From positions 1 to 36,850 of the IMG/VR virus record IMGVR_UViG_2778261418_000018: a DNA stretch of 36,850 nucleotides; one strand, written 5' to 3'. Both the position numbers and the translations under genes were made by a program. How positions within the stretch are numbered: position 1 is the stretch's first letter; each line of letters starts with the position of its first letter. Below the pieces are notes generated by a model. It made no database searches and had not been told where the DNA came from. It was given only the letters and a program-made list of their open reading frames with translations. This DNA is from a virus. Taxonomy: Duplodnaviria > Heunggongvirae > Uroviricota > Caudoviricetes. Positions 1,381 to 28,905 of this stretch are shown here, in pieces.

Positions 1381-1659
1381 TATTCATGTCTATGAGATAG
1401 GGTGCCTTATCGACCTTACCCTGGCAACCGATTGACGGGGGATTACTCCCCCGTCGCGGTTTCCTTACTGCTTACACTGTAAGAACGCCGCAAACTCCGC
1501 TCCCCAGAAGCTCATCCGTATTTCACACAGCGAACCGTGTAGCATCCAGATGATGAGGATTGCCGTCACGCAGAACGTGATGGCCATAAGCGATTTTTGC
1601 GACATAGCGCTTGCTCCTTTTTTGGGGAGGCGCTAACCTATCACTTGCTAAGGTTAGAT

Positions 1660-1780
1660 GGTCAGGGCCTCGGTTAAACAGAAATGTTTTCCGGGGCCTT
1701 TCCACATCTGGCCTTCGGGCATTCCCTCCGACCATCAGCCGAAAGGCACCCGCGCGTAATCTATCGCTTTTTTGTTACTC
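1660..1780. repeat. diverged direct repeat, copy B (immediately downstream of ogr)
   Basis: AGGGCCTCGGTTAAACAGAAATGTTTTCCGGGG...GCCGAAAGGCACCCGCGCGTAATCTATCGCTTTTTTGTTACT; counterpart of 655..775. Confidence 0.6.
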
Positions 1781-1795
1781 CGGCAATTCTGCCTG

Positions 1796-2056
1796 TTAAT
1801 TCTGAGGTAAAGGCAAACTCATCTGACTGTTTCCCCTGTGTGACGCTGGCAACTCATGCCACGGGATACCTTCTGAAGAGTGAACGCCGGAGGCGTGTTT
1901 TGATGTGAATTTATGGAAAGCTTCCAGTGTTGAGAAGCATACGCCGCATTCCAGGTTGTTACACTGGTAATACTTTTGCCGCACGGTGTTTGAATCATTT
2001 TCCGGACGACTGGTGCGGATACGGGCAGATGCGCCACAAAGCGGACAACGGAACAT
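1796..2056 (-). CDS. ogr: Ogr/Delta-type zinc-finger late transcription activator
   Basis: MFRCPLCGASARIRTSR...YYQCNNLECGVCF resembles P2 Ogr (as recalled) with C-x2-C...C-x4-C zinc finger; RBS GGGAGG upstream of ATG at 2056. Confidence 0.8.
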   Translation of the reverse strand: MFRCPLCGASARIRTSRPENDSNTVRQKYYQCNNLECGVCFSTLEAFHKFTSKHASGVHSSEGIPWHELPASHRGNSQMSLPLPQN

Positions 2057-2098
2057 AGCGACCTCCCTTAACGTGGTGTTGCCGCTATTCTAAGTTGC

Positions 2099-3208
2099 TC
2101 ACTCTGTTTCCGCTATCCATTCCGGGATTTTTGCCTCAAGCTCAAGCTGCGTGGTAAAGCCGCTGTTATCAATGGTGTGCTCGGCTTTTGCAATAATCCA
2201 GTCCTGATTATCAATCTCGCTTTTAAATCCTGTTACCGTGCCATGCATTTCGGGGTAGAGTTCTGCACGTCCACGTGCCAGCGTGATGGAAAATGATGCG
2301 GCTCCGCGTTGTAGCTGCTGCCACTTTGCCGCCGCTGCGCGTCTTGCTGCCTGCTCGTTCTGATAAGTCTTGCGTAACACAAACACGTTGCCTTCCGCAC
2401 CTTCCATATAGTCACCTTCACGGCTGCTGCTTTTCTCCTTTTTAGGTTTTGGCGGTTTGCGGCGTTTCACGCTGACTTTTTTCTTTTTCCCGTAATTAAG
2501 ATCAAGCCAGTAAGCGCGTACCCCCGTATACGCCTCGCGGTCAGCAATGCGGAACTGATGGCGATCGCCGTTGCTGCGGGTGATGGAGAACGATGGCAAC
2601 GGCTGGCCCTGTGCGTTCACGCCACCGCCTGGCATGATGAATAACAGATTGCCGCTTTTTACCGTGGTGATTGCGCCCAGCATTTCCGCCATGCGCGTAA
2701 GGAAGGACATGTCGCTTTCTTCGGTCTGGTCGGCGTGGTCGATTTCGATATCCATCAGCATTTCGCTGATTTGCGGTTTCAGGCCGTACCGATGAGCGAT
2801 GGCGGATACCACGCGCTCAACGGTCACATCGTGCCAGGATACTTCACGTTTAACGTTAAATTCATCCCGAAAATCTGCGCTTCTGGCTGAAACAGTCAGC
2901 CTGTCCGGTGGTCCTTCGTGAGCGATTTCATCAACAATGTAGGTGCCTTTTTCAGTCAGCGGTTCCCCTTTCCAGCCAATGAGAACCGTCAGACGCGCGC
3001 CCCGTGGCGGTAGCTGCAACTGGCCATCGGCATCATCCAGCGTGATGGTGAGCTGGTCCGCCTCAAATCCCCGGTTGTCGGTCAGTGACAGGCTCATCAG
3101 GCGGTCTGCTACGCCGGACAGCGTTTTACCCTCCGCGAGAATATCAAAATCCGGCATTTTCACGGGGTCAGTGCCCTGGCTGAGCAATTGCATGGTGGTG
3201 TCGGTCAT
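2099..3208 (-). CDS. D: tail protein D (late control gene D family)
   Basis: LSLTDNRGFEADQLTITLDDADGQLQLPPRGA...SARSADFR...SWHD typical gpD; start moved to internal ATG at 3208 (MTDTTMQLL) preceded by RBS GGGAGGG. Confidence 0.85.
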   Translation of the reverse strand: MTDTTMQLLSQGTDPVKMPDFDILAEGKTLSGVADRLMSLSLTDNRGFEADQLTITLDDADGQLQLPPRGARLTVLIGWKGEPLTEKGTYIVDEIAHEGPPDRLTVSARSADFRDEFNVKREVSWHDVTVERVVSAIAHRYGLKPQISEMLMDIEIDHADQTEESDMSFLTRMAEMLGAITTVKSGNLLFIMPGGGVNAQGQPLPSFSITRSNGDRHQFRIADREAYTGVRAYWLDLNYGKKKKVSVKRRKPPKPKKEKSSSREGDYMEGAEGNVFVLRKTYQNEQAARRAAAAKWQQLQRGAASFSITLARGRAELYPEMHGTVTGFKSEIDNQDWIIAKAEHTIDNSGFTTQLELEAKIPEWIAETE

Positions 3209-3365
3209 CTGTTCCCTCCCTGTGCGGCATGGTCGCATGTGCGTGCGGAAGGGGTTACTGCTTTTTGTTGTCGCCGTGGCGGGAGAACGGCGCAGGGGTG
3301 AGATTACGCGCGTGGTAGGTGATGATTGTTGCTGAATCATTTAACGGATACAAGGGGCTGAAGCT

Positions 3366-4550
3366 ATGAGTGAAACTCGTTTTCATGGTGCCCGTGTTAC
3401 GGAAAATACCGACCTGGTAACAGCGATTAACGATGTTGATTCCAGCGTTATCGGTATCGTGGCAACGGCGGATGATGCGGACGCGAAGCTGTTCCCGCTG
3501 AACAAGCCCACACTGCTGACCCGCGTTAATGACGTGCTGGGAAAATGCGGGACAACGGGGACGCTTTATCGTGCGCTTAAGGCAATCGCAGACCAGGTGA
3601 GCACAAAGGTGATCGTCGTTCGCGTGGCTGAACACAAAGAAGAAGACGGAAAGACGCAGGATCAACTGGTTATCGGTGGTTCTGAGGATGACGGCAGCTA
3701 TACGGGGATGTATGCGCTGCTTGTTGCAGAGCAGGATGAAAGCATCGGATACCGTCCGCGTATTCTGGCAGCGCCGGAGCTGGACACGGAGGCTGTAACA
3801 AAATCCCTGTGCGTGATTGCGGGTAAACTGCGCGCGTTTGTGTATGCCTCATGTCATGGCTGTAACACGATGGCTGAGGCAATTACCTACCGCCAGAAAT
3901 TCAACGAACGTGAGGTGATGCTCTTATGGCCGGACTTCATCGCCTACAACCCGAAAAGTGGCAAAAACGAAACGTTCCCCGCGCCTGCCTATGCGTGCGG
4001 CCTTCGTGCGTACATTGACCATGAGCAGGGCTGGCACAAATCGCTGTCCAACGTTCCGGTTAAAAATGTGCTGGGGATGTCCAGGCATGTGTTCTGGTCG
4101 TTGCAGGCCGAAGACAGTGATGCCAACAGCCTCAACAACAAAGAAATCACGACCATTATTCGTCGCAACGGGTTCCGCTTCTGGGGCAACCGCACACCGG
4201 AAACGAACGCCTACATCTTTGAGGTGTATACCCGAACCGCACAGGTGCTGGCTGATTCAATTGCGGAAGCGCAGTTTGAAACCATCGACAGTCCACTGAC
4301 GCCTGCGAACGTGAAAGATGTTATCAGTGCCATCAGGGCAAAACTGGATTCACTGGTTACTGCCGGGAAACTGATTGGGGCGTCGTGCTGGTATGACGTG
4401 GTGGATAACGGCACCACGAATTTACGTCAGGGGCGCGTGCGTATTCGCTACAAATATACGCCTGTTCCCCCGCTGGAAGACATGGAGCTTTACCAGTCGT
4501 TTACTGATGAATTCTTTGGTCCCGCATTTGCGGTGCTGGGAGGTGCCTGA
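3366..4550 (+). CDS. FI: tail sheath protein FI
   Basis: 394 aa, P2 FI-like size and sequence (MSETRFHGARVTENTDLVTAINDVD...). Confidence 0.9.
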   Translation: MSETRFHGARVTENTDLVTAINDVDSSVIGIVATADDADAKLFPLNKPTLLTRVNDVLGKCGTTGTLYRALKAIADQVSTKVIVVRVAEHKEEDGKTQDQLVIGGSEDDGSYTGMYALLVAEQDESIGYRPRILAAPELDTEAVTKSLCVIAGKLRAFVYASCHGCNTMAEAITYRQKFNEREVMLLWPDFIAYNPKSGKNETFPAPAYACGLRAYIDHEQGWHKSLSNVPVKNVLGMSRHVFWSLQAEDSDANSLNNKEITTIIRRNGFRFWGNRTPETNAYIFEVYTRTAQVLADSIAEAQFETIDSPLTPANVKDVISAIRAKLDSLVTAGKLIGASCWYDVVDNGTTNLRQGRVRIRYKYTPVPPLEDMELYQSFTDEFFGPAFAVLGGA

Positions 4551-5062
4551 TGGCTGTACCAAAACATCTTCGCTTTTTTACGTTGTTTGTGGATGGTGAA
4601 AACGAAGTGGGTAAAGTGACATCCGTCACGCCGCCCAAACTGACGCGCAAAACCGACAGTTATCGTGGTGGTGGCATGATGGGGGCGGTAAGTATTGATC
4701 TCGGTCTGGACGACTCCGCGCTTGATGCGAGCTTTGTCATGGGGGGAGCTGTTCGTGCACTGTTCCTTAAGTATGGCGGCACGATTGACGGCACGCTGCT
4801 GCGTTTTGCGGGTGAATATTACACCGATGCAGAAAGCGATCTGTATGAAATCGAGATGCGCGGGCGTGTGACGGAAATTGATATGGGGGAGGCCAAACAG
4901 GGCGAAGCCACATCACACACATACGCTGTCAAAAACACCTACTACAAGCTGAGTGTTAACGATCGCCCGCTGTGGGAAATCGACCTGTTGAACCACATCT
5001 ACCGGAAGGACGGCAAGGACATTGTGCCTGACCGCATTCGCTCCGCGCTTGGGCTTGGCTGA
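4550..5062 (+). CDS. FII: tail tube protein FII
   Basis: 170 aa; start overlaps FI stop (TGATG); P2 FII-like. Confidence 0.9.
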   Translation: MAVPKHLRFFTLFVDGENEVGKVTSVTPPKLTRKTDSYRGGGMMGAVSIDLGLDDSALDASFVMGGAVRALFLKYGGTIDGTLLRFAGEYYTDAESDLYEIEMRGRVTEIDMGEAKQGEATSHTYAVKNTYYKLSVNDRPLWEIDLLNHIYRKDGKDIVPDRIRSALGLG

Positions 5063-5117
5063 TAAGTAATATGCAGGCGACGCAGTGCGTCGCCTCTGAC
5101 TGAAAAGGAGACAACTG

Positions 5118-5492
5118 ATGAAAGACATCGATACTGAAACCCGGAATAACACCGTAGCGGATGATGTGACGGCAGGTGAGGATATGGCTGTCGAACGTGG
5201 TGTAAAACTTTCCCGGCCAATTGAGCGTGGTGCCGAAAAAATCACATATGTGGAAATCACCGGGGCTATTGAGCAGGCGGGATCCCTGCGTGGTCTGTCG
5301 CTGTCTGATGTGCTGAATCTGAAAGCGGATACCATGTTCACGCTGTTGCCTCGCGTGACCTCGCCACGACTGGATGAAGTGATGATTAAAAAAATGTCGT
5401 CACGCGATTTTATTCAGTTGTGCGCTGCGGCTGTAAATTTTATGAGCGAGCCAGACTCTGGCGCGAAGAGCGTGCAGGAGACGGCAGCGTAA
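5118..5492 (+). CDS. E: tail assembly chaperone E (0-frame product); E+E' made by -1 frameshift into the frame open 5390..5656
   Basis: Position between FII and T; overlapping -1 frame ORF with no good start; slippery candidates AAATTTT (5435..5441) and A7 (5388..5394). Confidence 0.7.
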   Translation: MKDIDTETRNNTVADDVTAGEDMAVERGVKLSRPIERGAEKITYVEITGAIEQAGSLRGLSLSDVLNLKADTMFTLLPRVTSPRLDEVMIKKMSSRDFIQLCAAAVNFMSEPDSGAKSVQETAA

Positions 5493-5633
5493 TCACCCTG
5501 GTGTGCTTTGAGCACATCGAAGATCTGGTGGCGGATATTGCCGCCATTTTTAACTGGTCGCCCGCCGAAATCTTCATGATGACGCCCGGCGAAGTGGTTA
5601 GCTGGCGTGAGCGGGCGGCACTTCGCAGCGGGA

Positions 5634-8450
5634 ATGCAGATAATGAAGACTCTTGACATCCGGGTCGCTTTCAGCGCCGTTGACAGGCTGACCCGGCCTG
5701 CCGAAAACGCCCGCCGCCTGATGGGGCAGTTTGGTGACTCCATCCAGCGAACGCAGGGGGCGATCAAAAATCTCGAGCGTCAGGCGCGTTCATTTGAGCG
5801 CGCCCGCGACGCTGTCAGTAAAGCGGATGCGGGTATCGTGAAAGCACGACGCCAGCTTAACGCCCTTAATCAGTTACAACGCACGGGTACAGTGCTCAGC
5901 GAAAAACAACAAAAGCTGATGCAGCAGTTAAGCACCCGGCTTGAACGCCTGAATGAATCGCGCACACGGGAAATTCAGAAAATGCGGGAGCTTGGCGGAG
6001 AGCTGAAACGCCACGGCATTTCCCTGACAGGCAGCGATAACACCATCCAGCAGGCCATCAGACGCACCGAACAGTACAACAACCAGCTTGAACGCGAACG
6101 GCAGGCGCTTGCGCGTGTAACGCGGGCGCGTGAGCGGTATTCGCGCGCGCAGGAAACAGCGGGAAAACTGAAAACAGGTGGTGCGCTGGCAATTGGTGCG
6201 GCAGCGGCGGGCGGCTATGCTGCCGGGCGTTTTTTGCAGCCTGCGATCGGGTTCGGGAAAGAAATGTCCCGCGTTCAGGCACTGACGCGAATCGACAAAA
6301 ACAGCCCGCAGTTTAAGGCGCTGCGTGAGCAGGCGTTAAAACTTGGCTCTGAAACGCAGTTCACCGCAGGCGATGCCGCCAGTGGGCAGGCATTTCTTGC
6401 AATGGCTGGCTTCACACCACAGGCCATTCAGGCTGCGCTCCCTGGCGTACTGAGCATGGCAACGGCTGGCGGTATGGACCTCGGTGAGACGGCGGATATT
6501 GGCTCAAATATTCTGACGCAGTTCGGTCTTTCTGCTGACCAGATGGGCCGGGTCGGCGACACACTCACCGCAGCGTTTACCCGTACCAACACTGACCTTC
6601 GCGCACTGGGTGAAACCATGAAATATGCAGGTCCGGTGGCGGGTAAGCTGGGAATATCGCTGGAGCAGGCCGCAGCGATGGCGGGCGTGCTGGCGAATAT
6701 GGGTATCAGGGGGAGTGATGCTGGTACGGCAATGCGTGCCAGCCTGGCTCGTCTGGCATCACCGCCAAAGGCGGCAGCAGAGGCGCTGAAAGAGCTTGGC
6801 GTGTCTGTCTCGGATGCCGGGGGCAAAATGCGCCCGATGGAGGATGTGCTGGCTGACCTTTATAAAGCTACCCGCAAATACGGGGAAGTTGACCGGGTAT
6901 CGTTCTTTAAGGACATTGCCGGAGAAGAGGCTTTCACATCATTTATGGCCCTCGTTGATGCGGCAGGTGACGGCTCCTTACCCAAACTGAGAAAAGAACT
7001 TGAAGGCGCGCGCGGTGAGGCTGAACGCACGGCAAAGGTTATGGCCAACAACCTTGACGGCGATTTGAAATCACTCAGCAGTGCATGGGAAGGGTTGCGC
7101 ATCCGCATTGCAGATCTGATTGACGGTCCGCTGCGTTCTGTCACGCAGTGGCTCACGCGTGTGGTATCAAAGGTGACGGCGCTGGCGCAGGCCCATCCCG
7201 CACTGACGCGCCAGCTACTGATTGCAGGCGGTGCACTGCTGGCAATGACTGCAACGGTTGGCTCGTTGTCGCTGGCTATTGGTGTGCTTGCTGGCCCGCT
7301 GGCAAAACTGCGTCTTGGTTTTTCCCTCCTGACCGGATCAATGAATGCTGTCAGGGTTCTGCCAGCACTATGGGGAATGGTGACGGGTTCCGTTTCTTTA
7401 CTGGGAGGCGCTATCGGGGCGTTGTTCAGTCCGGTTGGTCTTATCGTGGCTGCGCTTGCCGGAGCTGCCGTTCTTATCTGGAAATACTGGGATCCCATCA
7501 GGGCATTTTTTGCCGGGGTGTTCAGCGGGATTATGGAAAGGCTGACCCCGTTGCGCGAAACCTTTGAACGGTTTGGTCCTGTTTTTGACGCAATCGGAAG
7601 CGGGATCAGCCAGGTGTTTAACTGGTTTAAATCGCTGTTGTCACCGATGGAGTCCAGCAAGGAAACGCTGGATAAATGCACCAGTGCTGGCGAGGTATTC
7701 GGCAACGTTCTTGGTGGCGCGTTACAGCTTGTTCTGACGCCAGCAAAAATGTTGCTGGATACGCTGGCGTGGATACTTGAAAAACTCGGTGTGCTTCCGG
7801 ATGAAGCGGAAAGGACGAGAAAGAAAATCGAAGACGCACAGCGTGCGGCCATTCTTCAGGACAAGGTTGCCTTGCTTCAGGGTGACCTGGCGAAAATCAA
7901 TCCGCCGAAGCCTGTGGAAAATGGCAATGGCACCGGAGGTGATAAACCCAAAGACAACAAACCGCTCACAGACAGCAATACCGGTACGCTACGCAGACTC
8001 AGCAAAATTGCTGATAACACAGGTAAGCTGGTTGATGAGACGAAAAAACGCATTGGCCCCGGCGATATTGTCTTTAAGAACCTGCCCCGCGCACTTGCCG
8101 TTCGTGGGGAGTGGCAGGAGCGGAAGATTGCGCAGGTCAGTAAGCCTGCCCCCGCAATTAATATCACGCCTGTGGTTCCGGCCCCGCTGCCTCCGGCGCT
8201 GGTCCCTGTTGTTGCGGCCAGCTCCCGCCCGGTGGCGGAGGCCATACGATCGCCAGTGGCATCAGCCCCAACACCTTCGCGTAACCGGGAACCTGTTGCC
8301 TCAGGATTTGGCGATGAAATTCATGTTCATCTGCATAACGTTGTTACGCAGAATCCCCGCGAACTGGCGAAACTGGTCGGTGAAATGGTCAGGGCAGAAA
8401 TGGAACGGCGCGCCCGTGCTGGGCGTGGCAGTTTTTACGATAAAGATTGA
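5634..8450 (+). CDS. T: tail tape measure protein T
   Basis: ~940 aa, coiled-coil N-terminus, Gly/Ala-rich hydrophobic central region; ORF track start 5607 is GTG, ATG at 5634 or 5643 also possible. Confidence 0.85.
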   Translation: MQIMKTLDIRVAFSAVDRLTRPAENARRLMGQFGDSIQRTQGAIKNLERQARSFERARDAVSKADAGIVKARRQLNALNQLQRTGTVLSEKQQKLMQQLSTRLERLNESRTREIQKMRELGGELKRHGISLTGSDNTIQQAIRRTEQYNNQLERERQALARVTRARERYSRAQETAGKLKTGGALAIGAAAAGGYAAGRFLQPAIGFGKEMSRVQALTRIDKNSPQFKALREQALKLGSETQFTAGDAASGQAFLAMAGFTPQAIQAALPGVLSMATAGGMDLGETADIGSNILTQFGLSADQMGRVGDTLTAAFTRTNTDLRALGETMKYAGPVAGKLGISLEQAAAMAGVLANMGIRGSDAGTAMRASLARLASPPKAAAEALKELGVSVSDAGGKMRPMEDVLADLYKATRKYGEVDRVSFFKDIAGEEAFTSFMALVDAAGDGSLPKLRKELEGARGEAERTAKVMANNLDGDLKSLSSAWEGLRIRIADLIDGPLRSVTQWLTRVVSKVTALAQAHPALTRQLLIAGGALLAMTATVGSLSLAIGVLAGPLAKLRLGFSLLTGSMNAVRVLPALWGMVTGSVSLLGGAIGALFSPVGLIVAALAGAAVLIWKYWDPIRAFFAGVFSGIMERLTPLRETFERFGPVFDAIGSGISQVFNWFKSLLSPMESSKETLDKCTSAGEVFGNVLGGALQLVLTPAKMLLDTLAWILEKLGVLPDEAERTRKKIEDAQRAAILQDKVALLQGDLAKINPPKPVENGNGTGGDKPKDNKPLTDSNTGTLRRLSKIADNTGKLVDETKKRIGPGDIVFKNLPRALAVRGEWQERKIAQVSKPAPAINITPVVPAPLPPALVPVVAASSRPVAEAIRSPVASAPTPSRNREPVASGFGDEIHVHLHNVVTQNPRELAKLVGEMVRAEMERRARAGRGSFYDKD

Positions 8451-8456
8451 GGAGTC

Positions 8457-8951
8457 ATGGCCATGATGATGATCTACGGCATGTTTGTTTTTGAGCTGCG
8501 CACGCTGCCGCATCAGCAGTTACAGCAAAACAAAAGCTGGCGGCATGTGAAAAATGAACGCGTTAACCGTTCAGCAAGCTGGCAGTATATCGGTGCAGGT
8601 GATGATCGCATCGTTCTTTCTGGTGTGCTTTATCCTGAAATTACAGGTGGCGAAGTGTCGCTGTCGCTGCTGACCACGCAGGCGTATACAGGACGACCCT
8701 GGCCTTTGATTGATGGCGTCGGGCAGATTTACGGCATGTATGTCCTGACCGGAACGAATACGACCCGTTCCGAGTTTGATCGCTACGGTAAGGCGAAAAA
8801 GATAGAATTTTCACTGACCCTTGAACGCTGTGATGAGGATTTGCGGGAGCGCCTGCAATCCTCATCGTTCAGTGATATGCTGTCCGGCTTCAAAGATAAG
8901 GTCACATCATCCCTTAACAGCGCGGCCAGCTCCGTTAAAGGGCTGTTTTGA
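8457..8951 (+). CDS. U: tail protein U
   Basis: 164 aa, follows T as in P2 FETUD operon. Confidence 0.8.
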   Translation: MAMMMIYGMFVFELRTLPHQQLQQNKSWRHVKNERVNRSASWQYIGAGDDRIVLSGVLYPEITGGEVSLSLLTTQAYTGRPWPLIDGVGQIYGMYVLTGTNTTRSEFDRYGKAKKIEFSLTLERCDEDLRERLQSSSFSDMLSGFKDKVTSSLNSAASSVKGLF

Positions 8952-8958
8952 TTAACGC

Positions 8959-8988
8959 AAAACCGCTAATGGTCAGATTAGCGGTTTT
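8959..8988 (+). terminator. hairpin terminator after U, overlapping the invertase stop codon
   Basis: AAAACCGCTAAT-GGTCAG-ATTAGCGGTTTT then CATTTTCC; T-run only on the plus strand. Confidence 0.7.
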
Positions 8989-9577
8989 CATTTTCCTGAG
9001 TCTGCCTGGTTGTTTCTTCAGCCTGTATATCGCCTACAGGGTGATAACGATAAATTGTCGATATGCCGATGTCGTAAATGATCGCCAGTTGTTTCCTGTC
9101 ATGACCGTTTTTGATCAGCCTTGCTATTTGCTCATGCTGTTCTTTTGTCAGCTTCGGGCGACGTCCGCCTGTGCGCCCCCGTGCGCGCGCTGCCGCCAGT
9201 CCGGCCAGTGTACGTTCAACAATTAATTCACGTTCCATTTCAGCCAGGGCACCCATCACGTGGAAGAAAAAACGCCCCATTGGAGAAGATGTATCTATGC
9301 TGTCTGTCAGACTGCGAAAATTAATCCCTCGCTCCCGTAGTTCTCCGACGAGAGAAATCAGATGTTTCATGCTTCGCCCAAGGCGATCCAGTTTCCAGAC
9401 AACCAGCGTGTCACCTTTTTGAAGCCGCTTTAAAGCGCGTTTTAATCCCGGTCGGTCTGTCTTTGTCCCGCTTAATTTATCTTCAAATATTTGTTCACAT
9501 CCTGCACAAACAAGAGCGTTTCGTTGCAGGTCTGTATTCTGGTCATTTGTTGATACCCTTACATAACCAATCAGCAC
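8978..9577 (-). CDS. serine recombinase, DNA invertase of the Gin/Hin/Pin/Cin family
   Basis: LIGYVRVSTNDQNTDLQRNAL...GDTLVVWKLDRLGRS...MGRFFFHVMGALAEMERELIVERT; probable GTG start at 9577 giving MLIGYVRVS (ORF track start 9595 is TTG). Confidence 0.85.
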   Translation of the reverse strand: MLIGYVRVSTNDQNTDLQRNALVCAGCEQIFEDKLSGTKTDRPGLKRALKRLQKGDTLVVWKLDRLGRSMKHLISLVGELRERGINFRSLTDSIDTSSPMGRFFFHVMGALAEMERELIVERTLAGLAAARARGRTGGRRPKLTKEQHEQIARLIKNGHDRKQLAIIYDIGISTIYRYHPVGDIQAEETTRQTQENENR

Positions 9578-9631
9578 ACTGAATCTCCCGTCCAAAAGCG
9601 CAAATCATGCCATGCAGGCCGGAAACGGCCA

Positions 9632-9657
9632 TTATCTAAAACCTCGGTTTACAGGAA
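9632..9657. other. gix/hix-like recombination crossover site (left)
   Basis: TTATCTAAAACCTCGGTTTACAGGAA, very close to the Mu gix site as I recall it; part of an ~80-bp inverted repeat with 12621..12701. Confidence 0.75.
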
Positions 9658-9660
9658 ACG

Positions 9661-10638
9661 GTAAATCAGGCTTCTGGCGCATTACAGAAAAACCAGAACG
9701 GCGCAGATATTCCCGATAAAAAACTATTCCTGCGTAATATCGGCACAACAAATTCAACAACCATGTCTTTTAGTGGTGGTGCTGGATGGTTCAAACTGGC
9801 AACTGTAACAATGCCACAAGCCAGTTCCGTGGTTTACATAAGCCTGATTGGTGGCGCAGGGTATAACGTTGGCTCCCCGCAGCAAGCTGGCATATCTGAG
9901 CTGGTTCTGCGTGCAGGAAATGGGAATCCAAAAGGTATTACTGGTGCATTATGGCGACGGACCTCGGTTGGATTTACTAATTTTGCATGGGTGAATACAT
10001 CCGGTGATACCTATGACATTTATGTAGAAATAGGTAATTACGCCACAGGTGTTAATATCCAGTGGGATTATACAAAGGATGCAACTGTACAAATTCATAC
10101 ATCACCAACTTATACAGCGAATAAACCAACAGGCCTGACAGATGGAACTGTATATGTAATTTACAGTTCGCACATTAAACCGACTGCTGCTGATGTTGGG
10201 GCGTTGTCATTATCTGGAGGTCAATTGAATGGTGCACTGGGCATCGGAACATCCAGTGCTCTTGGCGGTAACTCGATTGTTTTGGGTGATAATGACACGG
10301 GCTTTAAACAAAATGGCGACGGTAATCTGGACGTTTATGCTAATAACGTCCATGTTATGCGCTTTGTCTCCGGCAGCATTCAAAGTAATAAAACCATAAA
10401 TATTACAGGGCGTGTTAACCCCTCGGATTACGGTAACTTTGATTCCCGCTATGTGAGAGATGTCCGACTTGGCACACGTGTTGTTCAGACTATGAAAAAA
10501 GGTGTGATGTATGAAAAATCAGGCCATGCAATTACGGGGCTTGGCATTATCGGCGAAGTTGATGGTGATGACCCCGCAGTATTCAGACCAATACAAAAAT
10601 ACATCAATGGCACATGGTATAACGTTGCGCAGGTGTAA
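9661..10638 (+). CDS. alternative tail-fibre C-terminal segment (Sv'-like), promoterless and start-less in this orientation
   Basis: Frame is open from the crossover site; first 18 codons (VNQASGALQKNQNGADIP) identical to the corresponding part of H; C-terminus ...RPIQKYINGTWYNVAQV parallels H ...RPIQYCINGTWYNAGSI. Confidence 0.7.
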   Translation, partial: VNQASGALQKNQNGADIPDKKLFLRNIGTTNSTTMSFSGGAGWFKLATVTMPQASSVVYISLIGGAGYNVGSPQQAGISELVLRAGNGNPKGITGALWRRTSVGFTNFAWVNTSGDTYDIYVEIGNYATGVNIQWDYTKDATVQIHTSPTYTANKPTGLTDGTVYVIYSSHIKPTAADVGALSLSGGQLNGALGIGTSSALGGNSIVLGDNDTGFKQNGDGNLDVYANNVHVMRFVSGSIQSNKTINITGRVNPSDYGNFDSRYVRDVRLGTRVVQTMKKGVMYEKSGHAITGLGIIGEVDGDDPAVFRPIQKYINGTWYNVAQV

Positions 10639-10641
10639 ATT

Positions 10642-11166
10642 ATGCAGCATTTAAAAAACATTAAGTCAGGTAATCCAAAAACAAAAGAACAATATCAGCT
10701 AACAAAGAATTTTGATGTTATCTGGTTATGGTCCGAAGACGGAAAAAACTGGTATGAGGAAGTGAAAAACTTTCAGCCAGACACAATAAAGATTGTTTAC
10801 GATGCAAATAATATTATTGTCGCCATCACCAAAGATGCCTCCACGCTTAACCCTGAAGGTTATAGCGTCGTTGAGGTTCCTGATATTACAGCTAATCGTC
10901 GTGCTGATGATTCCGGTAAGTGGATGTTTAAGGACGGAGCTGTGGTTAAACGGATTTATACGGCAGACGAGCAACAACAGGCCGAATCACAAAAGGCCGC
11001 GTTACTTTCCGAAGCAGAAAGCATTATTCAGCCACTGGAACGCGCTGTCAGGCTGAACATGGCAACAGATGAGGAGCGTAGCCGACTGGAAGCATGGGGA
11101 CGCTACAGTGTTATGGTCAGCCGTGTGGATACGGCAAAGCCAGAATGGCCACAAAAGCCTGAGTAA
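10642..11166 (+). CDS. tail-fibre assembly chaperone (alternative copy, U'-like)
   Basis: 174 aa, clearly similar to 11195..11728 ([22 protein letters not shown]... vs [22 protein letters not shown]...). Confidence 0.8.
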
Positions 11167-11171
11167 AAATT

Positions 11172-11191
11172 AAGGCCCGATATCGGGCCTT
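11172..11191. terminator. bidirectional terminator between convergent assembly-chaperone genes
   Basis: Perfect palindrome AAGGCCCG-ATAT-CGGGCCTT with A/T runs on both sides. Confidence 0.7.
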
Positions 11192-11194
11192 CTC

Positions 11195-11728
11195 TCATTC
11201 TGGTTGTTCTGGAAACGTTACTGGCAGGCTGGAGGTGTCTGTGGATTCGACTTTCTGCGCAAAGAGCATCCACTCTGTTAATTTTTGTTTATTCTCGTCG
11301 GAAATGATGCCCAGCCGTAGCTGTGAGTCCCATAGCTGGGTTTTATCCCTGACGAGCTGTAGCAGGCTTTGCTTTTCATTTTCCGCCTGCTGCCTCTGCT
11401 CTTCCGCGGTATAAGTTCGCTTTACCACTACGCCATCTTTGAACATCCATTTACCCGAAATGTCAGCACGGCGATTTGCTGTAATATCAGGTAATTCAAC
11501 GACGCTTGCGCCTTCCGGATTAATTGCTGAAACATCCTTTTCAATACAAATAATAACGCCGTTATGGTCATAGACCATTTTCAAAGTGTCTGGCTGGAAA
11601 TTCTTTTGTTCCTCATACCAGTTTTTTCCATCATCTGAATAAAGCCATTTGATGTTAAATTGCTTTGTTAGCTGGTATTGCTCTTTTGTTTTAGGGTTGC
11701 CAGCAGTAATGTTTTTTAAGTGCATCAT
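11195..11728 (-). CDS. G: tail-fibre assembly chaperone (expressed copy, P2 G-like)
   Basis: 177 aa directly downstream of H. Confidence 0.8.
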   Translation of the reverse strand: MMHLKNITAGNPKTKEQYQLTKQFNIKWLYSDDGKNWYEEQKNFQPDTLKMVYDHNGVIICIEKDVSAINPEGASVVELPDITANRRADISGKWMFKDGVVVKRTYTAEEQRQQAENEKQSLLQLVRDKTQLWDSQLRLGIISDENKQKLTEWMLFAQKVESTDTSSLPVTFPEQPE

Positions 11729-11730
11729 CG

Positions 11731-13833
11731 TTAAATACTCCCCGCGTTATACCACGTCCCATTAATGCAATACTGAATTGGCCTTGCCTGAGTTGTATCA
11801 ATTAATGCATCACGGTTTCCGTTAACTGAACCCGTAACGACATAACCTGACCTGTCAGACCAGCCGGGGCCATTCCATGTCTGAACAGATGACAGACCGC
11901 CAAGGCGAATACCTGTAATAAACCTTGAGTTACATTCTGCCTGCGTGTATGCACCAACATCTCCCGCAGAGGGTTTGCGGGTCGTGGTGTAAAACTCTGA
12001 CCAGTCAGCCTCAAATCCATAACCATCACGCGCTGAACGATAAAAAATACCGCCGTTCCTGTAATTCACGCGGAACTGTACAGCAGGGCAGCTCCCCGTA
12101 TTCATATTGAAGTGGAGGATTAATGTCGATGCGCCACCAATGTTTGCGTTATAGACCCCGCTATTCCAGTTCCAGCCAACAGCTTTATCATTTCCGACAG
12201 TGCTTCCTGTTTGCCCTAAAGCAAATGCAGGTTGTTGATTTTTCGTGTTGTAGTCTCGTCGCCAGCCAGGAGCGTAAGCATCACCATGATTAATATAAGT
12301 GAATTGAGCGTTATTAATTCCGCCACCGCTGGACGTGCTCGGCGTAGTAACGCGTATGGTCATTGCGCCGCGAGTGCCAATAACTTCCACCACAGCACCT
12401 GCAAGACAAATATTTCCGCAACCTGTATCTGTAATGACCTTATTATTTGCATAAGCCCATGAGCCTTTGCACATCCAGTAAGGATGGTTAAATGCTCCCT
12501 GACTCTCCAGCCACGAAATAAATTGCGCGGTTGTCCAGACCTGACTATCGCCACCAATATTCAGCCATGCGCTATATGCGCGGCAGGCCCCAATATTTTT
12601 GGTGAAGGTATCTTTTCCCGGAATATCTGCGCCGTTCTGGTTTTTCTGTAATGCGCCAGAAGCCTGATTTACCGTTTCCTGTAAACCGAGATATTCGATA
12701 ACAGCGGCAACGGTCGATTTCGCAAGAATATCCCGCCCGACTTTTGTCAGGGTTGCCAGGCTGGCGACATCATTCCCCGTAAAATACGGAAACTTGTCTG
12801 CCGCAGTAGCAAGCCCGGCCAGCGCCGTCAGGGTGGCATCTTTCGGTTGCTTACCCGCAAGCGCGTTAGTCATGGTGGTCGCAAAATTCGGGTCGTTTCC
12901 CAGCGCCGCCGCTAACTCGTTCAGCGTATTCAGTGCGTCAGGTGACGAATCTACAAGGGCGGCAATCGCGGCCATCACATAAGCCGTGCTTGCGATCTGA
13001 GTATTATTAGTACCTTTTGGCGCAGTTGGCGTTGTTGGCGTTCCAGTCAGCGCCGGGCTGTTTAATGGGGCTTTCTTGTTCGTTTCATCCATTACCGCCT
13101 TAACCGCTTTTGGTGTCGCTGCCAGCGTTTCAGACGTGCTGTTGGTTGCATTGCTGAGCTGGACTATCCCTTTTCGTGCCGTCGTGGCGTCCTGAGCGGT
13201 ATATTTTCCGTTAGCCAGGTCATACGCGGCCTTAACCGCTTTCGGCGTTGCGGCCAGCGTTTCAGAATCGCTGTTAGTGGCGCTACTGAGTTGAACAAAG
13301 CCTTTTGCGGTCAGCGAGGCATCCGGGTGACGTCGTGACTGTTCATGCTCTTTCAGTTTGTCATCCACGTAATCCACTGTGGCCATCACCATGGTGTTAT
13401 CCACGGTAAGCGCCACGGTGGCAGTGCTGGATACGGTCAGAATGGTGCGAAATGTTTGTGCACGTCCGGACCCTTCGGCAACGGTTGGCTTGTAACTTTC
13501 GGCAGTATTGCCCACCGCGATTAAATCGCCGTGCTCATCAAATACACCAATTTCCCGGATCCAGAATCCGCCCGTTTCAGGAGGAATAACCAGCTCTGCA
13601 ATAATGCGGTTCTGATGTGTTGCGTCCAGGATGACGCGATTAACAGTATGTCGCCACACCTCATGCACCAGACGGGTCTGCTTACTGTCAGGTGTGGGCA
13701 ATGTACCGCCACCGTCGCCCACGGCCATATGAGTCAGGCGGACAGGCTTACCATCTGGCGCGGCTGCCTGCGCTAATTTTTTTGCACCCGTATCGGTGAT
13801 AACGGTTTTAAATTTTCGTGTTGTGGTACTCAT
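11731..13833 (-). CDS. H: tail fibre protein H (constant N-terminus plus currently joined variable C-terminus)
   Basis: 700 aa; tandem SETLAATPKAVKA repeats; crossover site inside the coding sequence at 12676..12701. Confidence 0.85.
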   Translation of the reverse strand: MSTTTRKFKTVITDTGAKKLAQAAAPDGKPVRLTHMAVGDGGGTLPTPDSKQTRLVHEVWRHTVNRVILDATHQNRIIAELVIPPETGGFWIREIGVFDEHGDLIAVGNTAESYKPTVAEGSGRAQTFRTILTVSSTATVALTVDNTMVMATVDYVDDKLKEHEQSRRHPDASLTAKGFVQLSSATNSDSETLAATPKAVKAAYDLANGKYTAQDATTARKGIVQLSNATNSTSETLAATPKAVKAVMDETNKKAPLNSPALTGTPTTPTAPKGTNNTQIASTAYVMAAIAALVDSSPDALNTLNELAAALGNDPNFATTMTNALAGKQPKDATLTALAGLATAADKFPYFTGNDVASLATLTKVGRDILAKSTVAAVIEYLGLQETVNQASGALQKNQNGADIPGKDTFTKNIGACRAYSAWLNIGGDSQVWTTAQFISWLESQGAFNHPYWMCKGSWAYANNKVITDTGCGNICLAGAVVEVIGTRGAMTIRVTTPSTSSGGGINNAQFTYINHGDAYAPGWRRDYNTKNQQPAFALGQTGSTVGNDKAVGWNWNSGVYNANIGGASTLILHFNMNTGSCPAVQFRVNYRNGGIFYRSARDGYGFEADWSEFYTTTRKPSAGDVGAYTQAECNSRFITGIRLGGLSSVQTWNGPGWSDRSGYVVTGSVNGNRDALIDTTQARPIQYCINGTWYNAGSI
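12676..12701. other. gix/hix-like recombination crossover site (right, inverted)
   Basis: Plus strand TTCCTGTAAACCGAGATATTCGATAA, reverse complement TTATCGAATATCTCGGTTTACAGGAA; inner arm and ~55 bp of adjoining sequence identical to the left copy. Confidence 0.75.
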
Positions 13834-15609: not shown

Positions 15610-16187
15610 TGCGGGCCTCCTGTCGAATCGCTGCCACCTTTAACGCCACCGTGCTTATGCGTATGCACTGTGATGCCGTTTGAGGTGAAATCGCCGCCGC
15701 TGTGCGTGATATTGCCGCTCATCTTTCCCCCTTTTGTGACGTCAAGCGTCGCTGTTCTCAGAAGGTCTGTGCATTCCACGACGGGCGTGTCCAGTTTCAC
15801 GCTGACGGATGCCTGCAAAGTGGCCGTTTTCATGCCGCTGGCGCTCAGTGCGCCTGCGTCCGCGTCGTAGCGGAACGCCGCGCCATCCGGTGCGCTGACC
15901 ACGATTTCTTTCAGGCTTTTGCCGGGGGCCGGACTGGCATCACTCCACAGGCTGCCAATTATCATGGCGGTTTCCGGGTTGCCGCCAATGCAGGCAATTA
16001 CCACCTGTTCGCCGGGTGATGGCGGCAGCCACACATTGAAGGCTCCCGCGCGCGTGGTGTTCCAGCGCAACCAGCCTGTTTCCAGTTCGCCGCTGCGAAC
16101 GCGCACGCGCCAGGACTTCTCATCAACTTCAGAGATGATCCCGGTGCGGATGATATTGCTCAGCAGTCGCATAAGTTCTGCGCTCAC
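15606..16187 (-). CDS. V: baseplate spike/assembly protein V
   Basis: 193 aa, overlaps W start. Confidence 0.8.
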   Translation of the reverse strand: MSAELMRLLSNIIRTGIISEVDEKSWRVRVRSGELETGWLRWNTTRAGAFNVWLPPSPGEQVVIACIGGNPETAMIIGSLWSDASPAPGKSLKEIVVSAPDGAAFRYDADAGALSASGMKTATLQASVSVKLDTPVVECTDLLRTATLDVTKGGKMSGNITHSGGDFTSNGITVHTHKHGGVKGGSDSTGGPQ

Positions 16188-21253: not shown

Positions 21254-22090
21254 TCAGAAGTCAGCCAGCTGGTCGGAGGCTGCGCCCGTTGCGGTGAAGC
21301 GGTTCTGCGGATCGCCGTCCTGCGTGCGCAGTTTTTCCTTCAGTGCTGTCAGCTCTGTGGTCAGTGACGTGATTTTCTGGCGGTCCTGCTGATGGCGGGT
21401 TTCCAGCACATTAAAACGGTCGATAATGTCGGCCTGTGACGTTGCGACGCCTTCCACCGCTTCCTGAATACGGGAAAAACTGGCGTCATCCGCTTTGCGG
21501 CCACGGCCAATAATCCCCATTACGCGGTTAAACCACTGGGTGCCTTCTTCCTGGCGTTGTTCTGCCATTTCGATGATTTCAGACTCGATGGCTTCGGAGA
21601 TAAGCGGCGCTTCACCCTGGACACTGTTGAACGTCATTACCGCCTGACGTTGCTGTGCCGTGAATTTCAGGCGCTCAGTGCCCAGGCTTGCCGGGGTGTC
21701 GGTCATCGCCAGCCCGACCAGGTAGGCGCGCCCGTTAACGGAGAACTGCGGGTGCAGTTCGATACTGGAATAGATTTTCTTGCCGTCCGCGACAAGCTGC
21801 TTCATGCGCTCGGTCGGTTCGATTTCTGCATACAGCGCAGTACGTCCGGCCAGCGGACCTTCCGTAATGTCTTCCGTACTCAGTGCGGTGACATCGCCCA
21901 TTGCGGAAAATTCGCTTGACGGGCATGGCGAGAGATAGTGCTCAACGTTCACGCGGGCAGCGTAAACATCCGGGTTGAAGTTCTCGGCGGCTTCACGCAG
22001 ATGCACCGGACTGATTTCACGGCCATCAACAGTTGATCCGGAGACAGCCACGCGAAACTTTTTGCGGGATGTCTTTTTTTCATTAGCCAT
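21254..22090 (-). CDS. O: capsid scaffold protein O
   Basis: Start moved to ATG at 22090 (MANEKK) with RBS GAGGGG; P2 O-like. Confidence 0.8.
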   Translation of the reverse strand: MANEKKTSRKKFRVAVSGSTVDGREISPVHLREAAENFNPDVYAARVNVEHYLSPCPSSEFSAMGDVTALSTEDITEGPLAGRTALYAEIEPTERMKQLVADGKKIYSSIELHPQFSVNGRAYLVGLAMTDTPASLGTERLKFTAQQRQAVMTFNSVQGEAPLISEAIESEIIEMAEQRQEEGTQWFNRVMGIIGRGRKADDASFSRIQEAVEGVATSQADIIDRFNVLETRHQQDRQKITSLTTELTALKEKLRTQDGDPQNRFTATGAASDQLADF

Positions 22091-22244
22091 AGTTTTTGCC
22101 CCTCTGACTGGTTCTTCAGTCATGATGGCAAAGCGTAACAGGCTGATACAAAGGGCTTTTGTTGTAAGAAAACGGCCAGAACAGGGGGTTAAGGAGAACA
22201 GTTTCGCGCGCGGGTAATCTTCCTGTAATTACTCAGGGGGAGCA

Positions 22245-23996: not shown

Positions 23997-25042
23997 TGAG
24001 CAGAAAAAATAAAAAAGTGCGCATGAGTTCACGCATTGATCTCGCTGATGCGCTCAGGAAAGAATCATCGCTCAGTGCATTCACATTTGATGGTCCTTAT
24101 CGCCTGACCGGGCATGACCTGCTGGACAATATGTACTGTGCTGATAACGGGCGGTGGTATGAAACCCCGGTGGACTGGTACGGTCTGGCAAGAGCAGCCC
24201 GGCAAACGTCCTGGCATCAGTCTGCGCTTTACTTTAAGCGCAATGTATTACTCGGTTGCTACATCCCGCACCCGCTGCTTTCCCGGCAGGATTTCTCGGC
24301 GCTGGCGCTGGACTGGTTTGTGTTCGGTAACGCATTCCTTGAGCTTCGAAGCAATATGCTCGGCGAACCGCTTAAATTACGGCACGCACTGGCGAAATAC
24401 ATGCGACGCGGAAGCGATCTTGAATCATGGTGGTATGTGCAGGATGGCAAGGACGCGTTTCAGTTTCGCCCTGGCAAAGTGTGCCACCTGATGAATCCGG
24501 ACATTAACCAGGAAATTTACGGCATGCCGGAATATCTTGGCGCATTACTCTCGGCCAGCCTGTCTCATTCGGCGGACATGTTCAGAAAACTGTATTACGA
24601 CAATGGATCCCACGCCGGGTGCATCATCTACATCGGTGCAGCGCAGGTAAACCGCGAAAGCATGGACTCCCTGAAAGAAACGTTACAGGGGGCACGTGGT
24701 GGTGGTGCGTTTAAAAACGTGCTCATCCATGCGCCCAACGGGGGCAAAGAGGGGGTGCAAATTTTGCCGTTCCAGCAGATCACCGCAAAGGATGAGTTCA
24801 TGAATGTTAAGGCGGCATCCCGTGATGATGTGCTGGCTGCGCACCGCGTTCCGCCGCAACTGATGGGGGCGATGCCGGGCGAAAAAAGCGCGTTTGGTGA
24901 TGTGGAGAAGGCCGCGCGGGTTTACGCAATTAACGAGCTGATGCCCGTCATGGAGGCCATGAAGCACATCAATGACTGGCTTGGCGAAGAGGTGATCTGC
25001 TTTAACCCTTACGCACTGTTAGACACCCAGCCCACATCCTGA
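23996..25042 (+). CDS. Q: portal protein Q
   Basis: 348 aa, downstream of P, adjacent to cos region as in P2. Confidence 0.85.
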   Translation: MSRKNKKVRMSSRIDLADALRKESSLSAFTFDGPYRLTGHDLLDNMYCADNGRWYETPVDWYGLARAARQTSWHQSALYFKRNVLLGCYIPHPLLSRQDFSALALDWFVFGNAFLELRSNMLGEPLKLRHALAKYMRRGSDLESWWYVQDGKDAFQFRPGKVCHLMNPDINQEIYGMPEYLGALLSASLSHSADMFRKLYYDNGSHAGCIIYIGAAQVNRESMDSLKETLQGARGGGAFKNVLIHAPNGGKEGVQILPFQQITAKDEFMNVKAASRDDVLAAHRVPPQLMGAMPGEKSAFGDVEKAARVYAINELMPVMEAMKHINDWLGEEVICFNPYALLDTQPTS

Positions 25043-25092: not shown

Positions 25093-25465
25093 GACTCTCC
25101 AGCTCCTGTATCAATCAGATAATTTCACGACGCTTTCCTGCTTATTGCCATCATCGACAGTCAGACTCTTACGCAATCCCACCGCGTTGACTGCATGTTC
25201 TCGCCGTCTCAGTGCGATTTTGACGGCCTTACCTTTCACCCCATCAAATCAAAAGCCCTCACGTCTTTTTCACGCTCAGCGTGAGAAATACAGCCATTCT
25301 GTTGTGTCGCTGCGACATCGTTCAGGGGATGCTATTTACCCCCTGAAACGCGGGCTGTTCCCCCGTCACCTGCGCACAGGAAAAACGCGTTTTTTGTGCA
25401 CGCACGGATCCTTGACGGATCCAGCCGCCATGCGGGCCGGAAGGGCAAAAAGTCGTTCAAAAAAA

Positions 25466-27760: not shown

Positions 27761-27783
27761 ACATACTCCTTATCTATGCTGTA

Positions 27784-28905
27784 TTACATTTTTTGACTGT
27801 ATTTTCTAATTGTATCCCTACTGACTCCGGTTAAGTCTGATATGGCATGCTGGGATAATTTAGAATTTCTTTTTAGAGTAACTGCAATTTCTTTACGTTC
27901 ATTCCTGTCTAATTCTGATAAACCATCTTTAATGAACGACCCAATCAACTCTTCATCTGAGGAAATACCTAAAGCGACCGAACGTCGGAATTTGTTGATA
28001 GAACGCTCAATATTACTAAAAGATTCATTTTTGAACATAATAGCCAGTAGATCTATCCAACGTGCAAAAATCGCGTAGTCGGGACCCGAAAAGCGTTTAA
28101 TTGCTTCTTTAATACTTTCGCTATCTGGCTTCTCAAAATTGAGCACTAAATCAAAACGTCTCCATAGTGCTGGATCAATCAACTCAGCGAAGTTAGTTGC
28201 AGCAAGTAGCAAACTAGAAGACGGCCATTCGTCAACCTCCTGGAGTATCACGGTAACAAGTCTTTTTAATTCTCCAACATCAGAATCATCACTTCTCTTT
28301 TTGGCGATTGAATCAATTTCATCTAACAGAAGAACGCACGGCCCTTTCTTCGCAAAATCTAGAGCTGCCCGAAGGTTATTTCCGCTTTTGCCCAGATAGC
28401 TGCTCATTACTGCCGTTAAATCAAGAACGTAAAAAGGAACCCCTAATTTCTGAGCTAACCAGCTTGCCGTAAGTGTTTTACCTACACCCGGAGGGCCAAC
28501 AAAAATGGCAGAGCGTGTTGGTTGTAAGCCGAGAGTCTTGAGGCGATCGATGTGCTTCCGCTCAAGAATAATTTGATCCAGTGAGTCTTCTATCTGACTG
28601 GACAGTAGAGGTTTGCTCACAATCTTTTCATTTGGTGCTTTAAGCAAGGTAAGCCTTGACTCCTCGTCCACAGGCATGGTTTGAGGCAGCGCTTGTTTTG
28701 GTGCGGTAACCTTACGCAGGCTTTGTGCAGGCTTTTGCGGTTTATTTCGTAGATAAAGATCAAGCTGCTCGGATAGAGCAGGCATAGTTTCCCGATATTT
28801 ACGCACCAAGCGAGCGACATATAACCGAACGTCATCATACTGTTCAGTTATTACCAGTCTAACTAGTTGGGCTAAATCTGACTGAATACCACCTAAGTCG
28901 CCCAT
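27784..28905 (-). CDS. AAA+ ATPase (classic clade) with possible C-terminal HTH (candidate IetA-like)
   Basis: Walker A GPPGVGKT, Walker B VLLLDEID, sensor-1 LLLAATN, RRFD; C-terminal LSQHAISDLTGVSRDTIRKY. Confidence 0.8.
   Translation of the reverse strand: MGDLGGIQSDLAQLVRLVITEQYDDVRLYVARLVRKYRETMPALSEQLDLYLRNKPQKPAQSLRKVTAPKQALPQTMPVDEESRLTLLKAPNEKIVSKPLLSSQIEDSLDQIILERKHIDRLKTLGLQPTRSAIFVGPPGVGKTLTASWLAQKLGVPFYVLDLTAVMSSYLGKSGNNLRAALDFAKKGPCVLLLDEIDSIAKKRSDDSDVGELKRLVTVILQEVDEWPSSSLLLAATNFAELIDPALWRRFDLVLNFEKPDSESIKEAIKRFSGPDYAIFARWIDLLAIMFKNESFSNIERSINKFRRSVALGISSDEELIGSFIKDGLSELDRNERKEIAVTLKRNSKLSQHAISDLTGVSRDTIRKYSQKM

Follow-up and report, generated by a model that had tools for sequence, protein, structure and literature searches.

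Opposite orientation of the FI–U tail genes and D in a P88-like prophage: a widespread gene order that very probably stems from one ancient inversion

The tail genes FI–FII–E/E′–T–U of a P88-like prophage face away from D and ogr, and this is the normal, ancient order of a large P2-like branch rather than an anomaly. Very probably, a single ancient inversion of FI–U became fixed in a branch of the Peduoviridae, and a shared Ogr box between D and FI most likely serves both FI–U and D. The DNA analysed here, termed the window, is the whole 36,850-nucleotide stretch of IMG/VR record IMGVR_UViG_2778261418_000018.

The ORF layout and Pfam assignments of the window place ogr and D on the minus strand and FI–FII–E/E′–T–U on the plus strand, in agreement with the first-pass annotation. 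The ogr-like gene (1796–2056, minus) encodes a late activator of 86 aa with a C4 zinc finger (Ogr_Delta, E = 5e-14), and lies 42 bp downstream of D, the tail/baseplate hub of 369 aa (2099–3208, minus; Phage_GPD), on the same strand. The open frame of D extends to 3340; the start at 3208 was chosen from an upstream GGAGGG (SD) and from alignment to the annotated D starts in relatives. Between D and FI lies a divergent control region of 157 bp (3209–3365), the length originally reported, which aligns with 48 other unique spacers of the clade. The plus-strand block comprises FI, the tail sheath (3366–4550; Pfam sheath domains); FII, the tail tube (4550–5062; Phage_tube, E = 2e-45); the overlapping tail chaperone pair E (5118–5492) and E′ (ORF 5420–5656); T, the tape measure (ORF 5607–8450; PhageMin_Tail); and U, a tail protein and the final gene of the inverted block (8457–8951; Phage_P2_GpU, E = 1.5e-38). 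Relatives annotate pieces matching E and E′, and in the P2 record (NC_001895) the counterparts E and E+E′ are linked through a –1 frameshift. Homology to the P88 and phiSM annotations makes the ATG at 5643 the likely start of T. Convergent with U is a Hin/Gin/Cin-type serine invertase gene (8978–9595, minus; Resolvase and HTH_7), a neighbour outside the block. The hairpin terminator proposed between the two (8959–8988) withstood comparison with shuffles, its 12-bp stem folding at –15.9 kcal/mol (z = –3.35); since it lies between an A-run and a T-run, it could also act in both directions. Elsewhere in the window, S and V overlap at 16184–16187, and no separate promoter region was found for the V-operon.

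The late gene set, the Ogr/Delta activator, and the GpA and integrase genes (Phage_GPA and integrase Pfam matches), all in P2-like order, identify the window as P2-like (Peduoviridae). The P2 FETUD operon (NC_001895) shares with the window the genes FI, FII, E/E′, T, U, D and ogr, as well as an Ogr-type box upstream of FI. In P2, however, the order FI–FII–E–T–U–D–ogr is entirely co-directional, as the first-pass annotation had stated, U overlaps D, and D lacks its own promoter, whereas the window has FI–U inverted and D set apart with ogr. The proposal that the block is inverted relative to the P2/186-type order is supported by this comparison. Much closer to the window is P88 (Xuanwuvirus), which matches it in gene order, strands, the 157-bp D/FI spacer, the invertase and the invertible fibre segment, although the hotspot cargo differs, the window carrying IetAS. 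Identity to Xuanwuvirus is 95–97% over 66–94% of the compared stretches, with coverage against P88 of 79% of 1700–11800 and 66% of 11801–36800, and against Escherichia phage 520873 of 79–94%. ICTV genera are delimited at roughly 70% identity over genome length; the window is probably a Xuanwuvirus. The D protein of the window is 96–98% identical to those of P88 and phiSM, compared to 48.6% for P2 D.

The inverted order extends far beyond these relatives. Across both junctions the window is colinear, at 93–97% identity, with P88, P884B11 and phiSM and with 253 complete genomes of E. coli, and strand assignments in the P88 and phiSM annotations agree with it. Of 5426 complete E. coli genomes, 1109 (about a fifth) carry an intact D/FI junction. 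Among viable phages, P88, P884B11 and Citrobacter phiSM have this order, and it recurs in SEN5 (Senquatrovirus), Kp4871-3 (Reginaelenavirus) and Kp4847-1 (Reipivirus), so that with Xuanwuvirus four ICTV genera carry it. All 61 genome loci whose D is 60.8–98.4% identical are inverted, in approximately 27 genera of Enterobacterales. Conversely, the nearest 19 genome loci with D at 47.6–52.9% identity, which together with P2 and SopEPhi formed our canonical outgroup set, all have the canonical U-to-D order, as does P2, with the U stop adjoining or overlapping the D start. The window falls with the inverted loci, its FI start facing the D start over a short spacer and ogr following D; ogr lies 3′ of D on the same strand in every inverted-clade locus with a detected ogr homolog, and at the single locus where none was detected the flank stops 11 bp past D. 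Rooted on P2, the neighbour-joining trees for each of D, FI and U recover the inverted loci as monophyletic, which fits one old inversion. The first-pass annotation had allowed that the arrangement would prove lineage-typical if close relatives all shared it; they all do, and it is therefore ordinary for the clade and not special to the window.

The distribution bears equally on whether the 5.7-kb block could have been mis-oriented in contig building. Identical arrangements in the independently sequenced viable phages P88, phiSM and SEN5 and in 1109 complete E. coli genomes, together with junctions free of repeats able to mislead an assembler, make an assembly artefact so remote that we regard it as already refuted by the comparative data, and the earlier view that the arrangement is real holds. 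A different origin, in which an ancestor took up a foreign FI–U tail module in the opposite orientation, is improbable, even though P2-like phages are commonly mosaic and such a replacement would look identical today. Against it, FI, U and D have diverged similarly from their canonical P2-type homologs (45–50%, 38–48% and 48–53% identity, respectively), FI and U reproduce the monophyletic grouping of D, and their identities co-vary with those of D (r = 0.97 for D versus FI; r = 0.95 for U versus D). In addition, canonical relatives carry a PF box 76–84 bp upstream of FI that is preceded by a T-run, and this flank is retained on the D-proximal side of the window box.

The serine invertase adjoining the U end of the block invites the reading that FI–U is a phase-variable segment flipped reversibly by this enzyme, which we consider highly improbable. 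Hin/Gin/Cin inversion was rejected as the cause of the FI–U orientation, as the sites are absent at both ends: neither the full 26-bp gix-like site nor its core, used as a query, had a match at the junctions (3209–3365 and 8952–8977), and the only pair, in inverted orientation at 9632–9657 (minus) and 12676–12701 (plus), flanks 9658–12675. A search for inverted repeats over 1500–11800 likewise gave nothing at the block ends beyond short pairs attributable to chance, in keeping with the first-pass reading that the junctions lack such repeats and that the neighbouring invertase is not responsible. A flipped-back state of FI–U occurs in none of 66 clade loci, and most clade members, among them SEN5 and the 98%-identical Salmonella prophage L006, lack an invertase beside U; a minority carry the gene, as does one canonical locus. 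The gix-like sites bound an invertible tail-fibre segment (9632–12701) that in the P88 record has the opposite orientation to the window, with FI–U unchanged. With its serine invertase, inverted gix-like sites, and duplicated fibre C-termini and assembly genes, the region 8978–12701 resembles the Mu G, P1 C and Hin-type segments, and is 90–96% identical to the segments of Mu, D108 and P1. Inversion by this Mu/P1-type system is confined to the ~3-kb fibre segment and plays no part in which way FI–U points.

Separation from FETU raises the question of how D is transcribed. The first-pass annotation had reasoned that D would need its own promoter; one is required and apparently present, as a predicted combination of an Ogr-type box and a –10-like hexamer. 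The suggested TGT-N12-ACA site was found only in part: its exact form is absent from the D/FI spacer, with two matches in the whole window and neither near D/FI, but the one-mismatch form TCT-N12-ACA occurs once, at the centre of the spacer (3269–3286, centre 3277.5), the mismatch affecting one half-site. On the minus strand it reads TCT-CCCGCCACGGCG-ACA followed by ACAAAAAG. One-mismatch forms number 162 in the window, no excess over chance; the motif alone is uninformative, and comparative alignment was therefore needed. In a MAFFT alignment of 49 unique related spacers, an 18-bp T(G/C)T-N12-ACA box with variable N12 is present in 49/49 (24 TCT, 23 TGT and 2 CCT). Conserved columns on either side hold a –10-like hexamer GACCAT (3229–3234, minus) for the proposed D promoter, with a predicted start near 3222, and GATGAT (3321–3326, plus) for the FI promoter, with a predicted start near 3333. 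The D-side column is rAnnAT-like (AATCAT, AACTAT, GACCAT and similar), and variants on the FI side are GATTAT, GAATAT, GATGAT and AATGAT. In 45 of the 49 spacers, a distance of exactly 48.5 bp separates the outer end of each hexamer from the centre of the box, and the hexamer-to-hexamer span is exactly 98 bp, although part of this constancy could reflect inheritance instead of selection because the spacers are related. The leader segments adjoining the hexamers are variable (29–39 nt and 18–24 nt). A generic sigma-70 scan returned no promoter in the D/FI spacer, which is expected for activator-dependent promoters, though it is not positive evidence for them.

This geometry is that of the activator site shared by the P2 promoters pO and pP. 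The P2 RefSeq record (NC_001895) gives one activator site for both (3057–3087) and places their starts at 3016 and 3127, a separation of 111 bp; on each side, a hexamer lies 48.5 bp from the centre of the box. The D/FI region likewise has a single near-dyad TGT-N12-ACA-type site midway between divergent genes, and its hexamers, at the same 48.5 bp, imply start sites ~111 bp apart. The two differ in that the P2 start sites are annotated in RefSeq and those of D/FI are predicted, and in that pO/pP serve head or packaging genes and D/FI tail genes. An internal comparison is offered by the O/P divergent region of the window, which holds a single Ogr-type box with the same extended motif (22163–22180); measured from the centre of this box, the hexamer TAATCT on the P side lies at 48.5 bp and CATCAT on the O side at 49.5 bp. 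Duplication of this O/P intergenic region could have given rise to the D/FI spacer, as box and flank are alike in the two, but the remainder of the spacer gives no convincing alignment to it.

On the basis of this shared geometry, a bidirectional Ogr-dependent promoter most likely drives D. It is unlikely, though less so than any competing account of the inversion itself, that D instead relies on an Ogr-independent promoter, a separate unrecognised site or low-level read-through. Such a reading draws on the weak D-side hexamers (GACCAT, GATCCT) and on a GC-rich element, CGCGCGCG, that is conserved on the D side across clade spacers yet unexplained. However, the D-side distance between box and hexamer is 48.5 bp in 45/49 spacers, equal to that on the FI side and at P2 pO/pP; the nearest co-directional gene upstream of D is the invertase, 5.7 kb off and past the hairpin; and D, as an essential tail protein, must be made late.

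The history that we infer for the branch, including its exact breakpoints, would then run as follows. A single ancient inversion would have turned FI–FII–E/E′–T–U away from D, with one breakpoint just upstream of the FI late promoter and its Ogr box and the other at the U/D junction, and would have become fixed in the whole Peduoviridae branch. The ancestral FETUD operon would thereby have been cut into FI–U, ending at the hairpin after U, and D–ogr. The Ogr box may have moved along with FI to its present position in mid-spacer, where, as a near-dyad centred ~55 bp from two predicted divergent core promoters, it could allow one bound Ogr to serve both FI–U and D. Because of this placement, one bound Ogr most likely drives both, as at P2 pO/pP. 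On balance, we also favour the broader view that the inversion made a second pO/pP-style promoter, uncoupled D from FETU and gave ogr a dedicated, autoregulated late transcript, and that it is a synapomorphy of several genera (~27 host genera).

Neither inversion nor orientation is mentioned in the papers on P88 (PMC5285337) and on SEN4/SEN5 (PMC5261728), the C. rodentium prophage paper holds only a phiSM–P88 comparison, and the xenorhabdicin and kosakonicin papers treat inversion for fibre segments only; in the literature we found no paper stating a second bidirectional late promoter or the inversion as a synapomorphy of the branch. The P2/186 gene order is not a template for all P2-like prophages, as a large and very common branch has FI–U inverted, and this order should not be marked as anomalous or mis-assembled by annotators or scanners. 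A dyad activator site carried along by the inversion appears to supply the promoter for the stranded D, which is modestly interesting for work on phage gene regulation and on the engineering of P88-like phages or tailocins.

Open reading frame analysis and Pfam scans identify the window as a complete P2-family prophage, in which ogr (1796–2056), D (2099–3208), a Hin-type serine invertase (8978–9595), the tail-fibre genes G and H and the remaining late genes as far as O lie on the minus strand. The plus strand carries P and Q, which diverge from O, as well as FI (3366–4550), FII (4550–5062), E (5118–5492, with an overlapping E' frame to 5656), T (ORF 5607–8450, likely starting at the ATG at 5643) and U (8457–8951). 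A 157-bp spacer (3209–3365) separates D from FI, and folding supports a hairpin 3' of U (8959–8988; –15.9 kcal/mol, z = –3.35). The layout described in the first-pass annotation is accurate, as is its view that the FI–U block is inverted: the P2 reference record has FI-FII-E-T-U-D-ogr all on one strand, with U overlapping D and no separate promoter for D. Elsewhere in the late region, S and V overlap by 4 bases (16184–16187), so the window lineage lacks the S/V intergenic region that, with orf30, houses the pV promoter in P2; either O through G may constitute a single long operon or pV may be located within S.

An assembly artefact was rejected, since a 10.1-kb stretch across both junctions is colinear, at 93–97% identity, with phage P88 (induced and plaque-forming), Xuanwuvirus P884B11, Citrobacter phage phiSM (spontaneously active), and 253 complete E. 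coli genomes, among them UTI89. The arrangement is thus real, as first proposed, and the deposited annotations of P88 and phiSM place the genes on the same strands as in the window. Of 5426 complete E. coli genomes, 1109 contain an intact match to a 1.2-kb D/FI junction probe. The remainder of the window matches P88-type phages at 96–97% identity over 66–79% of its length, indicating a Xuanwuvirus-like prophage. In a sizeable E. coli subset (O157:H7 and others; probe matches H201–H204), the probe matches only from query base 244 onward, with spacer and FI intact but the match breaking off ~266 bp into the 5' portion of D; either D diverges at that point or these prophages are degraded. One contig attributed to Gram-positive 'Vagococcus sp. 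WN89Y' (NZ_JBQPOM010000071.1) encodes prophage D, FI, U and ogr proteins 95–99% identical to those of the window, likely through assembly contamination or mislabelling. Relatives contain some annotation errors: phiSM (OR565851.1, 2294–4745) names D as ogr and gives the sheath gene as 'late control gene D protein', and SEN5 (KT630646.2, 10141–10383) shows ogr as a wrong-strand ORF of 39 aa; by tblastn, its ogr homolog has 81 aa and lies on the same strand as D.

To define the extent of the arrangement, the phage collection was examined by protein searches for D identity and U strand. U and D lie on opposite strands in every phage record whose D exceeds about 60% identity, a group comprising Xuanwuvirus, Salmonella SEN4 and SEN5 (Senquatrovirus), and Klebsiella Kp4871-3 (Reginaelenavirus) and Kp4847-1 (Reipivirus); in records at or below about 52%, including SopEPhi, other Klebsiella phages and P2, U sits just upstream of D and is co-directional with it. 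One genome per species was also scanned, yielding 80 loci that were classified by tblastn: all 61 with D 60.8–98.4% identical are inverted, spanning about 27 genera across Enterobacterales (including Salmonella, Klebsiella, Erwinia, Pectobacterium, Yersinia, Hafnia, Providencia, Xenorhabdus and Photorhabdus), and all 19 with D 47.6–52.9% identical are canonical. The first-pass annotation had allowed that close relatives might share the arrangement, making it lineage-typical, and the inverted order is indeed shared by all relatives with D above about 60% identity, so it is ordinary for this clade.

How the block came to be inverted can be considered from these loci. Inverted loci form a single clade with no canonical members in P2-rooted neighbour-joining trees of D, FI and U, and D and FI identities to the window are closely correlated (r = 0.97). 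Together these make a single old inversion in place, passed down through a branch of Peduoviridae that spans several genera, the simplest reading of the sequences; acquisition of a foreign FI–U module, or repeated inversion events, would be less likely. The adjacent invertase was rejected as the cause, in line with the initial assessment: repeats linking the two FI–U junctions were looked for and none were found, and the only gix-like sites in the window, an inverted pair (9632–9657 and 12676–12701), flank duplicated fibre C-termini and assembly genes. These sites bound an invertible tail-fibre segment of the Mu G/P1 C type (9632–12701), with two alternative fibre C-termini and two assembly genes, and this ~3-kb segment is 90–96% identical to those of Mu, D108 and P1; the site at 12676–12701 falls inside H, near codon 380. 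In the P88 record the fibre segment has the opposite orientation to that in the window, but FI–U is unchanged. The invertase beside U is also absent from most clade members, including SEN5 and a 98%-identical Salmonella prophage, and is present in one canonical locus. It is a bystander to FI–U orientation.

The D/FI spacer was then compared across the inverted clade by alignment of 49 unique sequences. In P2 and canonical relatives, the stop codon of U adjoins or overlaps the start of D, and the FI promoter carries, 76–84 bp before the FI ATG, a TGT-N12-ACA box that follows the T-run of the upstream terminator. Each of the 49 inverted spacers contains exactly one 18-bp T(G/C)T-N12-ACA box (24 TCT, 23 TGT, 2 CCT) with variable N12 and, on the D side, a ACAAAAAG flank, which is the T-run of canonical FI promoters read from the other strand. 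The window box lies at 3269–3286, between conserved –10-like hexamers facing FI (GATGAT, 3321–3326) and D (GACCAT, 3234–3229). The outer end of each hexamer is 48.5 bp from the box centre, and in 45 of the 49 spacers the hexamer-to-hexamer span measures exactly 98 bp; leaders past the hexamers vary (29–39 nt on the FI side, 18–24 nt on the D side). The Ogr-type site that the first-pass annotation proposed seeking upstream of D and FI is present as a single TCT-N12-ACA box, which the exact TGT-N12-ACA search misses because of its TCT half-site. A motif of this type occurs by itself at chance frequency in the window; the constant box–hexamer spacing among related sequences is suggestive of a shared promoter, not proof of one. 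A GC-rich element, CGCGCGCGC(A/G)TG (3240–3249), conserved across the clade, lies directly upstream of the D-side hexamer, and a similar CGCGCGCG lies beside the P-side hexamer in the O/P region. The D frame is open for 44 codons upstream of its real start (3209–3340), giving a 413-aa ORF. Small 'hypothetical protein' genes annotated within the spacer, such as P88 gp50 (2529–2660 of its record), SEN5_27 (8800–8952 of the SEN5 record) and those of many PGAP records, overlap this control region and lack conservation; they are probably spurious.

The same geometry occurs at P2 pO/pP, where the reference record gives a single 'activator binding site; pO, pP promoters' (3057–3087) with start sites at 3016 and 3127, 111 bp apart, and hexamers ending 48.5 bp either side of the box centre. 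The window and its clade relatives have O/P regions with this single-box layout (window box 22163–22180), and a similar shared site is predicted in Stenotrophomonas phage Smp131 (PMC3931495). The probable start of the scaffold gene O is 22090 (MANEKK..., GAGGGG upstream), not the first ATG at 22123 (region 22088–22244); a start at 22090 would give the box a symmetrical position relative to the core promoters of O and P, as it has in P2. From the matching geometry we infer that the inversion brought the Ogr box of the FI promoter beside D, where, being a near-dyad, it would now activate both directions, producing two units, FI–U stopping at the hairpin 3' of U and D continuing into ogr. The earlier expectation that D needs its own promoter thus has a candidate in the conserved box and D-facing hexamer.

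Only two exact TGT-N12-ACA matches occur in the window, at 24561–24578 (inside Q) and at 25300–25317 (TGTTGTGTCGCTGCGACA); the latter is intergenic, after Q and before the end of the IetS gene, and may be either a late-activated promoter or a chance match. Low-GC cargo (about 39–43% GC) at 25535–28905, flanked by Q and the replication gene A where P2 has its old/tin hotspot, encodes an IetAS defence pair: an IetS-like subtilase (741 aa; PADLOC E = 3e-51) and an IetA-like AAA+ ATPase (373 aa; E = 1e-77).

As a feature, the inverted FI–U arrangement is already known, being present in the published annotated genomes of P88, SEN4/SEN5 and phiSM and in thousands of annotated bacterial genomes; comment on it was not found in the published accounts consulted. 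We likewise found no literature statement that the inversion defines a large clade, or that the D/FI spacer repeats the pO/pP design, for whose bidirectional logic P2 pO/pP is direct precedent. A clade-defining inversion with a pO/pP-like spacer is a modest addition, and one that would not surprise the field.
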